A program made the translations under genes and the position numbers. A stretch of DNA of 27,125 nucleotides. Origin: Acidimicrobiia bacterium. GTDB lineage: Bacteria > Actinomycetota > Acidimicrobiia > Spongiisociales > UBA5794. This document shows, in pieces, positions 2,572-7,924 of this stretch. Below the pieces are notes generated by a model. It was not told the DNA's origin. It saw nothing but the letters and a program-made list of their open reading frames with translations, and did no database searches. The stretch's first letter is position 1. Every line of letters begins with the position of its first letter. The DNA lies in assembly GCA_046496605.1 (NCBI GenBank), contig JAWOGV010000209.1:1-27125 (forward strand), in the 5' to 3' direction.

Positions 2572-3339
2572 GTGCTGGCCTTCCGCCGCTCCGGCGCCGG
2601 CCCGCCCGTCGTTGCACTCCACGGGTTCACGCACACCGGCGCCCAGTTCGACGAGCTCGCCCTGGGTATCGGCCGCACCGTCATCGCCCCCGATCTGCCT
2701 GGTCACGGTCACGGCGCGAGCGCTCCCGCATCCGTTGCGTCCGTTGTCTCACAGGTTGCAGAGACCATCGTCGCCGTCCATACCGGAGCCGTGCCGATCG
2801 TCGGATACAGCCAGGGCGGACGAGTGGCGCTGCTCGTCGCTGACGCCCGTCCCGATCTCGTATCCGGTCTTGCGCTCATCTCCACGACCCCCGGAATCGC
2901 CGATCCGGCCGATCATGGAGCACGTGCGCAGGCCGATCGGGACCTCGCATCACACATCCTCGCCGTGGGCATCGAGCGATTCCTCGACGAGTGGACCCGT
3001 TCGGGCATCACCTCCACGAGCCATCTCGAACCGGCTGCCCGTCGAGCCGATCTCGTCGTCCGCATGGAGAACACGGCTGCCGGACTGGCCGCCGCAGTCG
3101 AGGGCTACGGCCAGGGAGCGCAGCCGTCACTGTGGGACTCGTTGGCATCGATCACGGTGCCCGTCGTTCTGATCACGGGGAGCGAGGATCCGGTCTACAC
3201 CGCTCATGCCGAGGCGATGGTGGAGAGGCTCCCCGACGCGTACGTCGAGGTGCTCGAAGGGGCACGCCACAACCCGCTGCTCGACACGCCGGGACTCGTC
3301 ACCGCCGCGGTGTCAGGATTCCTCGATCGGCTCGGCTGA
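2572..3339 (+). CDS. menH: Alpha/beta hydrolase, MenH-like (SHCHC synthase family)
   Basis: LHGFT oxyanion motif, GYSQGGRVAL nucleophile elbow, GYGQGAQPSLWDSL (MenH-type segment) and catalytic His in ARHNP. No other men genes are in the window, so the exact substrate is not proven. Confidence 0.7.
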   Translation: MLAFRRSGAGPPVVALHGFTHTGAQFDELALGIGRTVIAPDLPGHGHGASAPASVASVVSQVAETIVAVHTGAVPIVGYSQGGRVALLVADARPDLVSGLALISTTPGIADPADHGARAQADRDLASHILAVGIERFLDEWTRSGITSTSHLEPAARRADLVVRMENTAAGLAAAVEGYGQGAQPSLWDSLASITVPVVLITGSEDPVYTAHAEAMVERLPDAYVEVLEGARHNPLLDTPGLVTAAVSGFLDRLG

Positions 3340-4179
3340 TCCCGAGGACCAGTCGTAGAACCCGAGCCCCGACTTCTTGCCCAGACGACCGTCCGCGACC
3401 ATCCTCCTGAGCAGGTCGGGCGGTTCGAATCGCGATCCGTAGACGGATGCGAGGTGCTCCGCGATCCCGAGGCGAACGTCGAGGCCGACGAGGTCACCGA
3501 GCATGAGGGGACCCATCGGATGCCCGTAGCCGAGGCGCATCGCCGTGTCGATGTCCACAGGCGAGGCGACCCCTGTTTCGACCATCCGGATCGCCTCGAT
3601 CCCCACGAGGACACCGAGACGGCTGGTGGCGAACCCGGGGGCATCGTTGATGACCGCGTGCTCCATGCCGAGTCGTTCGACGGTGGCAACGATCCTCGCA
3701 AGGGTGTCGTCGGACGTCGCGCTCCCGCGCACCACTTCGACCAGGTGCATCGCCCACACCGGGTTGAAGAAGTGCATCCCGGCGAACGAGGTTGGATCCC
3801 CGAGTGAGGAAGCGAGCCGATCGATCGAGATGCTCGAGGTGTTCGAAGCCAGCGTGGTGGGGTTCCTGCGCTGCGCCGCGTCGAGGATGGAGCCCTTCAG
3901 CTCGGCGTCCTCGATGACCGCTTCGATGATCAGGTCGAGACCTTCGGGCATGTCGTCGATCGACCCGTGGGCGTGGAGCCCTCCGATCGCCGAGTCTCGC
4001 TCGGCAACCGTCAACTTCGCCCTGTCGACGGCAGCCTGCAAGGTTGCGGCGACGCGTTCCACCGCCCCTTGGGCGGTGGAGAGGTCCACATCGACGAGAT
4101 GCACGTCATACCCGTTCGCGGCGAACCGGTGAGCGATGCCGATGCCCATCGTTCCGCCGCCGATGACCCCGACCCTCAT
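3313..4179 (-). CDS. 3-hydroxyacyl-CoA (3-hydroxybutyryl-CoA) dehydrogenase
   Basis: VIGGGTMGIG Rossmann motif, IIEAVIED, LASNTSSISI, GMHFFNPV, DAPGFATSRL, GHPMGPLMLGDLVGLDV, LGKKSGLGFY. Confidence 0.95.
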   Translation of the reverse strand: MRVGVIGGGTMGIGIAHRFAANGYDVHLVDVDLSTAQGAVERVAATLQAAVDRAKLTVAERDSAIGGLHAHGSIDDMPEGLDLIIEAVIEDAELKGSILDAAQRRNPTTLASNTSSISIDRLASSLGDPTSFAGMHFFNPVWAMHLVEVVRGSATSDDTLARIVATVERLGMEHAVINDAPGFATSRLGVLVGIEAIRMVETGVASPVDIDTAMRLGYGHPMGPLMLGDLVGLDVRLGIAEHLASVYGSRFEPPDLLRRMVADGRLGKKSGLGFYDWSSGSAEPIEES

Positions 4180-5144
4180 CCGGCCTCCCTCCCGACGGTG
4201 CCCCGCTCCTCGGGACCCATCTGACTCGAATCCACGAATCCTGCCACAGCGTCGGCGATTGCACCCGGATCCGCGAGGATCGCCTCATGGCCGAGGCCCG
4301 GCAACCTGACGACGCGTGCATTCGGGATGAGGGAGGCAAGTTCCTCCTGGGTCGCCACACGGACCACTGTGTCACGTTCGGGGATGATGACGAGCGTCGG
4401 AGTCGTGATGCCATGGACCCGGTCCCGCGAGTCGAATCTCCATATCGCGTACGCGGCCTCGTGGTACAGGTTCGCATCGCGAGCGAGGAGGGAGTCCCAC
4501 ATCCATGCCTCATCCTCGATCCCGATCAGGCCGCGACTTCTCAGCATGAGGAACGAGGCCCACACCGCCTCCGCCCTCGATATCCGAGCGAGCGCCCTGG
4601 TCACACCGAAGAGCCCGAAGCTGAGCGGCCGCATCCGATCGATGGGCCGTGCCGCAGTCGCGCCCAGGACGAGGACACTCGCAATCTCGGGATGGCGCAG
4701 CACCAGCTCCTGGGCGACCATCCCTCCCATCGAGTATCCAACGACGGGGATCGGAGTCGGGACGCCGAGCTCCGTCATGATCGAGGCGACCTCGTCTGCC
4801 ACGTCCGCGATCTCGAACCTCCCACGGATCCGATCCGACTTCCCGTGGTTGCGCAGATCCGGCACGATCACCCTGAACCGCCGTGCGAGGATCGGCATGA
4901 GCTTGTGGAACACCATCTCGCCGTCGAAGTTCCATCCGTGGATCAGGAGGATGGGTGGCGCATCCGGATCTCCCAACTCGCGGACGAAGAACTCGTGACG
5001 GCCGACGAACACGCTCCTGCCCGGAACCATCAGCGGACGCCTCTGCTCGCCGTTCGTCCGAGGAACGGGATCTGGGCCGAACAACCGCCATGCAAGCCAG
5101 GACGCGCCGACGACGCCGACGGTCCGTGTTATCAACCGGGCCAC
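4176..5144 (-). CDS. Alpha/beta hydrolase with N-terminal membrane anchor
   Basis: LLIHGW, VPDLRNHGKS, GYSMGG nucleophile, GLGHE His. GTG start 6 nt after a TAGCGT -10 (5151-5156). ATGA overlap with the dehydrogenase gene. Confidence 0.9.
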   Translation of the reverse strand: MARLITRTVGVVGASWLAWRLFGPDPVPRTNGEQRRPLMVPGRSVFVGRHEFFVRELGDPDAPPILLIHGWNFDGEMVFHKLMPILARRFRVIVPDLRNHGKSDRIRGRFEIADVADEVASIMTELGVPTPIPVVGYSMGGMVAQELVLRHPEIASVLVLGATAARPIDRMRPLSFGLFGVTRALARISRAEAVWASFLMLRSRGLIGIEDEAWMWDSLLARDANLYHEAAYAIWRFDSRDRVHGITTPTLVIIPERDTVVRVATQEELASLIPNARVVRLPGLGHEAILADPGAIADAVAGFVDSSQMGPEERGTVGREAG

Positions 5145-5202
5145 ATCGGAACGCTACCGATGTCGCAGATATCGTGATCCGGTGCCGCTAGCGTCCCTCC
5201 CA

Positions 5203-6261
5203 ATGGACGACATCCGCCTCACCGCGTACTCGCACGGCGCGGGTTGAGCGTGCAAGCTCGGACCTGACGAGCTGACGCAGGTTCTGCGTCCCTTGCACGA
5301 CCATCCAGCCACGCGCCACCCGGACCTGCTCGTGGGTTTCGCCGGGTCCGACGACGCCGGGGTCATTCGCCTCGACTCCGAGCGGGCCCTCGTCCAGACG
5401 GTGGACTTCTTCACGCCGATCGTGGACGACCCGTACGACTGGGGACGGATCGCTGCCGCGAATGCCCTCTCGGACGTCTATGCGATGGGAGCGGACCCGT
5501 TGACTGCGCTGCAACTCGTGGGATGGCCGAGGGACGACCTCCCGATGGACCTGCTCTCGTCCGTCATCCGCGGCGGTGCCGATGTGATGGCCGCTGCCGG
5601 ATGTGTCATCGTCGGGGGCCACTCGATCGACGACAGGGAACCGAAGTACGGGTTCGCCGTGACCGGGGTGGCGCCACCGGGCGACATCACCACGAACAGC
5701 TCGGCGAGCGCCGGCCAATCGCTGTATCTCACGAAGCCGATCGGAACCGGAATCCTCTCCACCGCGCTCAAGAACGGGCGCCTCGATCCCTCCTCGGTCA
5801 CCGAGCTCGTTGCCGTCATGACGACCCTCAATGCCGCACCCGCCCGTGCCGTCCGACGGATCGGCGCACGAGCAGTCACGGATGTGACCGGATTCGGGCT
5901 CCTCGGACACCTCGCGGAGATGGTCAGGGCCTCGGGGACGAGCGCGGTCGTGGAGGTGGCGACGGTGCCATTCCTCGAGGGCGCCCGTTTCCTCGCCGAG
6001 GAGGGCATGATTCCTGGGGGGACCAGGAGAAACCTCGATTCCGTCTCCGCGATGCTCGATCCGGGAGGTTCCGACGAGGTCGACCGCATCCTCCTCGCTG
6101 ACGCCCAGACGTCCGGGGGCCTTCTCATCGCCGTCGACGCGGCGATGAACAGCGCCTTCGAGCAGGCCATCGAGGACGAGGGAGCATCCGCATGGCGCAT
6201 CGGTTCCATGGTGGTCAGGACCTTCGCCCACGGTCCCTCCGGCCAGATCATGCTCGCCTGA
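5203..6261 (+). CDS. selD: Selenophosphate synthetase (selenide, water dikinase), selenocysteine-containing, 352 aa with Sec at codon 15
   Basis: ATG 5203 gives MDDIRLTAYSHGAG-UGA-ACKLGP, in frame with ORF 5293..6261. This matches the SelD N-terminal RLT.YSHGAGCxCK motif with TGA (5245-5247) at the catalytic Cys/Sec position. Downstream motifs are DDAGV, QTVDFFTPIVDDP, NALSDVYAMG, LYLTKPIGTG, TDVTGFGLLGHL and DAQTSGGLL. Confidence 0.96.
5248..5278 (+). promoter_or_regulatory. Putative bacterial SECIS hairpin directly 3' of the selD UGA
   Basis: GCGT(5248-51) pairs with ACGC(5275-78) as a lower stem. AGCTCG(5255-60) pairs with CGAGCT(5268-73) as a perfect upper stem. The loop GACCTGA starts with G. 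Confidence 0.65.
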
Positions 6262-6508: not shown

Positions 6509-7924
6509 ATGAGGATCCGCATCCCACGCCCGCGCCAGTTCGGCTCGATGCTCAGGGATCTCGCACGTCGCGACCCCGAGGAGGCCGAGGCGTACCTCGA
6601 CACCCATCAGGATGCGTGGGAGGATCTCGCCGAGCGAAACCCCCACGACGCCGCCGACATCCTCGAGGCCATCGACGAGGAGGGCGCCGCTGACCTCCTT
6701 CGTGACCTCGATCTGGCTGACGCAGGTGACGTCCTCGACGAGATGCGCCCTGAGGCGGCCGCAGACGTCCTCCAGGAGATGCAGCCAGAGCGGGCGGCTG
6801 AGCTGGTCTCCCAGATGGAGCCCGATCAGGCAGCCGATGTGATCGGCGCGCTCGACGCGGAGGACCGGACGGCAGTGCTGCTGCACCTCGATCGCGCTAC
6901 GGCTGCCGAGGTCGAACGCCTCCTCATGTTCGCCGCCGACACCGCGGGCGGCATGATGACGACCGACATCGCCGCGCTGCCCGTCGGCCTGTCGGCCGGC
7001 GAAGCGATCGAGGCCCTCCGACGGCTCCACGACGAGCTCGGTTCGAACCTGCTGTACGTGTACGTCGTCGACGACGACGGACGGCTCCTCGGTGTCGTTT
7101 CGTTCCGCGATCTCGTGTTCGCGAGGCCCGGTTCCGCCCTCGATGAGGTCATGGAGCCTCACGTGGTCAAGGTGTCGACCGATACCGACCGCGAGCAGGT
7201 CGCCGAGCTCGTCCAGCGATATCGCCTGATCGCCATCCCGGTCGTCGACGGCGACGAGCGTTTGGTCGGCATGGTGAAGGTGGCCGAGGCCCTCGAGGCG
7301 ATCCAGGCCGAGGCAGGTGAGGACATCGCAGTGATGGTCGGCGCAGGTGTCGAGGAGACGGTATTCACGCCCGTGAGCCAGTCGGTGAGGCGCCGGATCC
7401 CATGGATCGCGTTCAACCTCTTCGTCGGCATCCTGATTGCAGCGGTGATCTCACAATTCGAGGCGACCCTGACGACCTACGCGGTCCTGGCCGCATACAT
7501 GCCTCTCGTCGCCCTCCTTTCGGGCAACTCGGGTGCCCAGTCACTCGCCGTCATCATTCGGTCGATGGCGGTCGGGGACATTCCGCGAGGGCGCGCATGG
7601 CGCGCGATCAGGCGGGAGGTCGCGGTGGGCCTCATCGATGGGCTCATCATCGCGGCGATCGCAGCGTCCACCGCTGCGTTGACGTTGCACCTGTTCCAGG
7701 ATTCAGGGGGCGAGGCCGTGGGGGCTGTCGAGCTCGCAGTGATCATCTTCGTTGCGGTGTGGATCGCGTTCATGGTCGCGGGCCTCGTCGGAGCCGGAAT
7801 ACCCGTCGCTCTGCGAAAGGTCGGTCAGGATCCCGCGGTCGCATCGAACATCTTCCTCACGATGACCACCGACATGGTCGGTTTCGGAGGTTTCCTGGCC
7901 ATCTCGACCCTGCTCCTGAGCTGA
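6509..7924 (+). CDS. mgtE: Magnesium transporter MgtE
   Basis: Acidic N-terminal superhelical repeats, a CBS pair (TAGGMMTTD; YVYVVDDDGRLLGVVSFRDL; AIPVVDGDERLVG), and a TM domain with SGNSGAQS and MTTDMVG (Mg-binding Asp). TAGGCT -10 at 6494-6499. Confidence 0.96.
   Translation: MRIRIPRPRQFGSMLRDLARRDPEEAEAYLDTHQDAWEDLAERNPHDAADILEAIDEEGAADLLRDLDLADAGDVLDEMRPEAAADVLQEMQPERAAELVSQMEPDQAADVIGALDAEDRTAVLLHLDRATAAEVERLLMFAADTAGGMMTTDIAALPVGLSAGEAIEALRRLHDELGSNLLYVYVVDDDGRLLGVVSFRDLVFARPGSALDEVMEPHVVKVSTDTDREQVAELVQRYRLIAIPVVDGDERLVGMVKVAEALEAIQAEAGEDIAVMVGAGVEETVFTPVSQSVRRRIPWIAFNLFVGILIAAVISQFEATLTTYAVLAAYMPLVALLSGNSGAQSLAVIIRSMAVGDIPRGRAWRAIRREVAVGLIDGLIIAAIAASTAALTLHLFQDSGGEAVGAVELAVIIFVAVWIAFMVAGLVGAGIPVALRKVGQDPAVASNIFLTMTTDMVGFGGFLAISTLLLS

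Follow-up and report, generated by a model that had tools for sequence, protein, structure and literature searches.

We examined a stretch of 27,125 nucleotides (nt) from an Acidimicrobiia bacterium (assembly GCA_046496605.1, contig JAWOGV010000209.1, positions 1 to 27,125 of the forward strand), here called the window, and found in it a selD gene whose product, by sequence comparison, is itself a selenoprotein. An in-frame UGA occupies the catalytic position, codon 15, and two abutting hairpins (H1 and H2) follow it inside the coding region. Taking all parts together, we consider it likely that this UGA is recoded to selenocysteine (Sec) by way of SelB on H2, the candidate selenocysteine insertion sequence (SECIS), that H1 serves as a spacer hairpin, and that the selD messenger RNA (mRNA) is leaderless. 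The source is a metagenome-assembled genome (MAG) of 2.2 Mb in 409 contigs, 86% complete. The gene and the elements around its UGA are as follows.

5203 to 6261, plus strand: selD, selenide, water dikinase (selenophosphate synthetase), with predicted Sec at residue 15; assigned by TIGR00476, Pfam and alignment to structure 3u0o.
5245 to 5247, plus strand: UGA at codon 15, predicted to be read as Sec; aligned with Cys17 of the reference structure and conserved in relatives and in independent contigs.
5248 to 5251, plus strand: GCGU, the 5' half of an outer stem (partner ACGC, 5275 to 5278) proposed in a preliminary description of this DNA; unsupported.
5255 to 5273, plus strand: hairpin H1, AGCUCG / GACCUGA / CGAGCU; probably an accessory spacer hairpin and not the SelB site.
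5274 to 5290, plus strand: hairpin H2, GACGCAG / GUU / CUGCGUC, or a stem of 6 base pairs (bp) with a GGUUC loop; most likely the SelB-binding core of the SECIS.

Once the TGA at 5245-5247 is read through, a single frame is open on the plus strand from ATG 5203 to the TGA at 6259-6261 and specifies 352 residues. With the internal TGA read as U, the protein begins MDDIRLTAYSHGAG-U-ACKLGPDELTQVLR (in short form, MDDIRLTAYSHGAG-U-ACKL). The curated NCBIfam selD equivalog TIGR00476 matches residues 5-313, U included, with 402.8 bits (cut-off 125); NF002098 matches with 386.9 bits (cut-off 299), and the Pfam domains AIRS and AIRS_C are both found. Alignment to E. coli SelD (PDB 3u0o) places residue 15, the U, on the catalytic Cys17, and Lys18 on Lys20. 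By these matches the product is a member of the SelD family, and selenophosphate synthesis is its predicted function. The mechanical list of open reading frames (ORFs) indeed begins the gene at TTG 5293 (5293-6261), a truncation to which the preliminary description had drawn attention. It had read SelD as a selenoprotein with an in-frame UGA at codon 15, and coordinates, frame, catalytic position and conservation all agree with that reading.

We compared 61 genomes of the same genus, family and order, a tally that counts the unpublished genome G050, whose sequence was not used. Among the 58 that carry selD, codon 15 is a TGA, exactly one and in frame, in 52 and a cysteine (Cys) codon in six. 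The flanking motif SHGAG-x-ACK is common to 66 TGA forms and 61-65 Cys forms, and the 14 codons upstream of the TGA hold a conserved RLTxYSHGAG motif. Furthermore, contigs spanning 5100-5400 from four independent metagenome studies carry the TGA and both hairpins unchanged. The variants in these contigs are 5160 A>G, 5171 A>G, 5181 G>A, 5183 T>C and, changing Asp2 to Asn, 5206 G>A, and all five sites fall in the promoter region or the second codon. Because the TGA recurs in 52 of the 58 relatives and is unchanged in four independent assemblies, sequencing error and a pseudogene are excluded, and we identify UGA 5245-5247 by comparison as a true Sec codon. The opposite view, that the TGA is a true stop (a pseudogene, an assembly error, or a gene starting at TTG 5293 or another downstream codon), can appeal to mechanical ORF calling. 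It has against it, besides the recurrence of the TGA and the agreement of the assemblies, a protein strongly conserved on both sides, the RLTxYSHGAG motif and the catalytic position that a downstream start would cut away, and a complete Sec machinery in the genome. We consider its probability negligible.

That machinery lies on contigs other than the one carrying selD. A tRNA-Sec is found at C155:2202-2292 (66.2 bits, cut-off 47), which ARAGORN calls as tRNA-SeC with anticodon tca; contig C306 holds selA (376.6 bits) and, adjoining it, selB (302.5 bits, an open frame of 591 codons). All three components, on which the Sec reading depends, had been predicted from the window and are present in the genome. 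ARAGORN reported no tRNA in the window, and a search of the 86%-complete genome for selU (TIGR03167) found none.

The two hairpins lie directly downstream of the UGA. H1 begins 7 nt past it, and its loop starts 13 nt past it (5248-5260). The AGCUCG-GACCUGA-CGAGCU hairpin named in the preliminary description is this one, which is stable and conserved in orthologues, and the GCGT/ACGC elements and the 13-nt distance from UGA to loop are also present as given there. The second hairpin, absent from that description and lying mostly outside its coordinates (5203-5278), abuts H1 without a linker, so that a 26-nt spacer separates it from the UGA and its loop lies about 32-33 nt past the UGA. Folded alone, H1 reaches -8.4 kcal/mol (1 of 200 shuffles was as stable) and H2 -9.2 kcal/mol (0 of 200). 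Folding the whole of 5245-5292 speaks against our arrangement: the minimum free energy (MFE) structure of the single sequence is H1 plus the outer pairs, the fold proposed earlier, at -19.5 kcal/mol, whereas H1 together with H2 (GGUUC loop) is the centroid only, at -17.6 kcal/mol. Thermodynamics alone left the choice between folds undecided, and thus we turned to comparative data.

Pairs were counted in a gap-free alignment of 66 Sec-containing orthologues (65 in the pairing counts). In H2, 95.8% of cells are paired, and changes on both sides occur at four of the seven pairs; examples, each from a different pair, are ACG..CGU / GCG..CGC / UCG..CGA, CAG..CUG versus CAA..UUG, and GCU..AGC. Likewise, H1 is paired in 95.9% of cells and has two covarying pairs. 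Its closing pair is G-C in 50 forms, A-U in 8 and U-A in 1, and is unpaired in 5; AAA is matched by UUG in three of four cases. The covariation score lies above all 500 shuffles, and pairing, at 88%, drops to 23-42% when partners are slid. RNAalifold, run on the 66 Sec forms, recovers H2. Two other helices were rejected: a 5' helix in which RNAalifold pairs GGUUGAG with CUCGG..CC in place of H1, with no pair changed on both sides, and a closing stem of a three-way junction in the single-sequence fold (5249-5254/5294-5299), which is 72% paired and has one pair unpaired in 41 of 65 orthologues. The GCGU/ACGC outer stem shows no pair changed on both sides either; its pair 5250/5276, one that includes a third codon position, cannot form in 28 of 65 orthologues, and its 3' half overlaps the 5' arm of H2. 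Aligning orthologues for UGA/Cys exchange and stem covariation, as had been suggested, hence bears out the exchange and the covariation of H1 and H2, and gives no covariation for the outer stem.

Orthologues containing Cys served as a control that separates RNA from coding constraint. H2 keeps on average 6.65 of 7 pairs in TGA forms and 3.4-4.25 of 7 in Cys forms, with 5.5 pairs in those Cys forms that retain the peptide QVLR. Over the H2 stretch the MFE averages -9.4 kcal/mol in Sec forms versus -2.9 in Cys forms, and over the 26-nt spacer -8.4 versus -5.4 kcal/mol, a contrast that is weakened by the two sets not being phylogenetically matched, which inflates its p-values. Synonymous sites in the stems follow the same division. 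The codon of Ala+10 is GCG in 45 of 49 Sec forms, whereas Cys forms have GCC in 12 and GCG in 4, and the third-position entropy of Leu+13 is 0.11 in Sec forms versus 1.38 in Cys forms; Leu+9 likewise stands at 0.11 in Sec forms. Third positions in the loops and upstream, in contrast, are free in Sec forms (entropy 1.70 at Gly+5 and 1.25 at Val+12). At the third base of the H2 loop, 60-61 of about 65 Sec forms have a pyrimidine, whereas 34 of the 48 Val codons in Cys forms have G. Judged from these patterns of substitution, both hairpins are under selection at the RNA level.

Two of the Cys forms, L039 and L076 (the latter from an uncultured Acidimicrobiaceae MAG), have the appearance of recent conversions from Sec to Cys. 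They retain the surrounding peptide unaltered (SHGAG-C-ACKLGPDELAQVLR), and synonymous changes, such as GCG to GCC or CTG to CTC or TTG, already break pairs of H2.

Which of the two hairpins is the SECIS? The bacterial consensus has a loop of 3-9 nt with G in its first two positions, usually then G or U, an upper stem of 4-16 bp, a UGA-to-loop distance of 16-37 nt and an MFE of at most -7.5 kcal/mol (PMC13188914). H2 agrees with it throughout: a 7-bp stem carries a 3-nt loop (GUU), or alternatively a 6-bp stem carries one of 5 nt; all 66 Sec forms share G5281 and U5282; the spacing is 33 nt (5248-5280); and the MFE is -9.2 kcal/mol. Written as a 5-nt loop, H2 reads GGUUC here and GGUCC in most relatives (GGUYC). 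H1, with a spacing of 13 nt, lies below the 16-37 nt range, and its loop start varies, being GA in the window and GU, GC, GA, GG, CA, CC or others in orthologues, with the Gly third position free as noted above.

The genome itself offers a comparison, since at least three further candidate selenoprotein genes are present in it (G000).

C212, 81 to 83 (L158): in-frame TGA of an fdhA-like gene cut by the contig start, SCNRT-U-HAPSV.
C67, 3035 to 3037, minus strand (L155): in-frame TGA of a Prx-like AhpC/TSA protein with the U-x-x-C motif FLRHFG-U-LTC; candidate selenoprotein of a known family.
C102, 17803 to 17805 (L156): in-frame TGA of a GRDB/PrdB-like protein, LVPV-U-PVC (Pfam PF07355, 27.8 bits); candidate selenoprotein.

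The fdhA-like hairpin, GUCGUC-GGUCU-GGCGAC, has its G-U at nt 23-24 counted from the U of the UGA, as in the consensus of Rfam SECIS_3, which it matches weakly (20 bits; gathering score 63). The Prx-like hairpin, GCGGGCC-GGUCA-GGUCCGC, begins 14 nt past its UGA, and the GRDB/PrdB-like hairpin, ACGUGUC-GGUCG-GACACGU, 10 nt past its own. All three candidate SECIS have 5-nt loops of the form GGUCN (GGUCU, GGUCA, GGUCG) on stems of 6-7 bp, starting 17-21 nt after the UGA. The loop of H2 is the same motif, placed 11-15 nt farther from the UGA. H2 is therefore preferred as the SelB site, given its fit to the consensus, its Sec-linked covariation and its GGUCN-like loop, while H1 has too short a spacing and a variable loop; H2 is most likely the SECIS hairpin to which SelB would bind. 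Searches of the whole window against Rfam at gathering thresholds, and of 5190-5340 against SECIS_2 to SECIS_5 and other families at E up to 10, gave no match, because the Rfam SECIS families model fdhA-type elements.

Several observations weigh against this choice. The 33-nt spacing lies close to the known maximum, and the invariant G-U of the H2 loop also forms the first two bases of a Val codon. In two distant Sec-SelD genes, L134 and L139, a hairpin with a GG loop appears, by eye, to lie 17-20 nt past the UGA, at about the position of H1. This last point also favours the model of the preliminary description, in which H1 and the GCGU/ACGC stem form a compact SECIS variant that binds SelB through a loop 13 nt past the UGA. 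H1 is stable, highly paired and covarying, the single-sequence MFE structure is exactly this fold, and orthologues with a GGU glycine codon read GGUCC across the closing G and loop of H1. Against the compact model, however, stand its outer stem, uncompensated and broken at one pair in 28 of 65 orthologues, and its loop, in which neither of the first two positions is constant (the third base of the Gly codon is free, and some orthologues have Ala or Ser instead). Its 13-nt distance lies outside both the consensus range and the 17-21 nt range of the genome's own elements, and it leaves unexplained the Sec-linked conservation and covariation of the adjacent H2, with its canonical fit. We regard the compact SECIS as improbable.

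If H2 is the SECIS, H1 might still have no function of its own and be a by-product of the peptide K-L-G-P-D-E-L and of high-G+C codons, with H2 alone as the SECIS behind a 26-nt spacer. AAG CUC and GAG CUG are preferred codons and near reverse complements, so that five of the six H1 pairs follow from K-L-x-x-x-E-L; Cys forms retaining K-L...E-L have these pairs complete and show 6 of 6. Part of the conservation of H1 may accordingly be coding constraint. Yet the codon of Leu+4 is CTC in 64 of 66 Sec forms, whereas at Leu-9 of the same genes CTC is used 31 times, CTG 24 and TTG 7, and Leu+4 is freer in Cys forms (entropy 0.92 vs 0.20). If codon +5 begins with a base other than G, the sixth H1 pair is kept in 9 of 12 Sec forms versus 8 of 22 Cys forms. 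Furthermore, Sec forms in which H1 is disrupted, such as L058 and L154, usually form an alternative spacer hairpin of similar stability in its place. We hold the by-product explanation to be doubtful. The frozen synonymous stem sites, the covariation of the closing pair and the replacement hairpins are our reasons for regarding H1 as a selected element, and it is probably an accessory spacer hairpin.

Work on fdhF of E. coli and cryo-electron microscopy of SelB on the ribosome place the start of the minimal SECIS hairpin 11 nt past the UGA, just outside the mRNA entrance of the ribosome. With H2 as the SelB site and H1 as spacer, we propose that a SelB.GTP.Sec-tRNA(Sec) complex would recode UGA 5245-5247 and insert Sec at catalytic residue 15. 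SelB would dock on H2 by way of its apical G-U (5281-5282), its GGUYC-type loop and its G+C-rich stem of 6-7 bp. H1, 19 nt long, would fill almost exactly the extra 11-15 nt that separate H2 from the UGA, and once folded would shorten the path, bringing H2 to about the usual distance from the mRNA entrance. With the UGA in the A site and H1 folded, the base of H2 would lie roughly one helix width off, near its usual position. A stronger form of this proposal is that selD of Acidimicrobiia has a bipartite SECIS, in which H2 lies about 14 nt beyond the fdhA-type position and an obligatory, abutting H1 folds at the mRNA entrance; we offer it tentatively, as a possibility that we think somewhat less probable than its alternatives. 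Were it correct, Sec insertion would need two structures, one of them not contacted by SelB, all within the first 90 nt of a leaderless mRNA. The spacer-hairpin idea, if true, would make a small mechanistic point on how bacterial SECIS tolerate long distances between UGA and loop.

In Actinobacteria such as Mycobacterium and Streptomyces, leaderless mRNAs begin at the start codon itself, and a TANNNT -10 element lies a few nt ahead of it. A hexamer of this kind stands before selD.

5189 to 5194, plus strand: -10-like hexamer TAGCGT (TANNNT), 8 nt before the ATG; candidate promoter for a leaderless selD mRNA.

TAGCGT is followed by the pyrimidine-rich ccctccca and then by ATG 5203, and a Shine-Dalgarno sequence is absent. 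Among the 66 Sec-selD orthologues, 33 have TANNNT 6-9 nt before an in-frame ATG or GTG without a Shine-Dalgarno sequence, versus 1.3 of 66 in shuffled upstream regions. The earlier impression of a leaderless mRNA thereby gains comparative support, and the selD mRNA is probably leaderless. The likeness to the actinobacterial pattern extends to this half of the orthologues; unlike that pattern, most of the others instead possess a short leader, in which a Shine-Dalgarno sequence of the GGAGG type is clear. In L030-L032, L037, L048 and L056, a conserved TACACT precedes a leader that is about 15-20 nt long and contains a GGAGG Shine-Dalgarno sequence, and the selD start thus switches between leaderless and leadered within one order. 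A scan of 5050-5320 with a sigma-70 consensus returned no promoter or terminator, using a tool that does not model actinobacterial TANNNT promoters. A start at GTG 5182, after TATCGT (5170-5175), was rejected: all four independent contigs carry 5171 A>G, two of the four carry 5183 T>C, which turns the GTG into GCG, and close relatives keep the ATG context.

Among prokaryotic selenoprotein families, Sec-containing SelD ranks second in breadth of distribution (PMC13188914). It has been listed for Actinobacteria such as Rubrobacter (PMC1794560), and in ocean metagenomes it belongs, with the PrdB and Prx-like families, to the most abundant selenoproteins (PMC2398784). The novelty implied in the preliminary description was therefore overstated. 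Like the known Sec-SelD proteins of Haemophilus influenzae, Clostridia, Rubrobacter xylanophilus and marine metagenomes, the protein matches TIGR00476, has its predicted Sec in an N-terminal glycine-rich loop followed by x-C-K, and comes from a genome with selA, selB and selC. It does not differ from them in kind; what sets it apart is its origin in an uncultured lineage of Acidimicrobiia that has the Sec form as a rule, in 52 of 58 selD-bearing genomes across the order. Likewise, H2 agrees in every point with the bSECISearch model of Zhang and Gladyshev (as given in PMC13188914), with the differences that its spacing is near the upper limit and that the spacer is itself a conserved hairpin abutting it, an arrangement absent from that model. 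With the E. coli fdhF-type and actinobacterial fdhA-type SECIS (Rfam SECIS_2 and SECIS_3), H2 shares an apical G-U on a short G+C-rich stem; unlike in those elements, the G-U of selD lies at nt 37-38, 14 nt farther from the UGA than in the genome's own fdhA. The finding thus amounts to the correct annotation, for an uncultured lineage, of a gene of known kind whose SECIS lies inside the published consensus, and only the conserved spacer hairpin at a long UGA-to-loop distance is mildly new.

The annotation has practical consequences. Standard gene callers cut selD to 5293 and lose the catalytic residue, and the same is expected in most Acidimicrobiales genomes. Furthermore, the clade provides a clean natural data set for one gene, with about 65 Sec forms and about 60 Cys forms, in which selection at the RNA level is seen to act on a SECIS within coding sequence and to decay once Sec has been replaced by Cys.

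The PrdB and Prx-like families that are abundant in ocean metagenomes also appear in this genome. A crude genome-wide scan for an open-frame TGA followed within 16-37 nt by a hairpin with a G(G/U) loop returned 172 matches at 66% G+C; almost all are noise, and the credible ones are selD, the Prx-like gene and the GRDB-like gene only. The neighbours of selD in the window have no selenium link: downstream lies a gene for an MgtE magnesium transporter (6509-7924, plus strand), and upstream, on the minus strand (3313-5144), are genes for an alpha/beta hydrolase and a 3-hydroxyacyl-CoA dehydrogenase. The alpha/beta-hydrolase gene (4176-5144, minus strand) is divergent from selD and separated from it by a gap of 58 nt.

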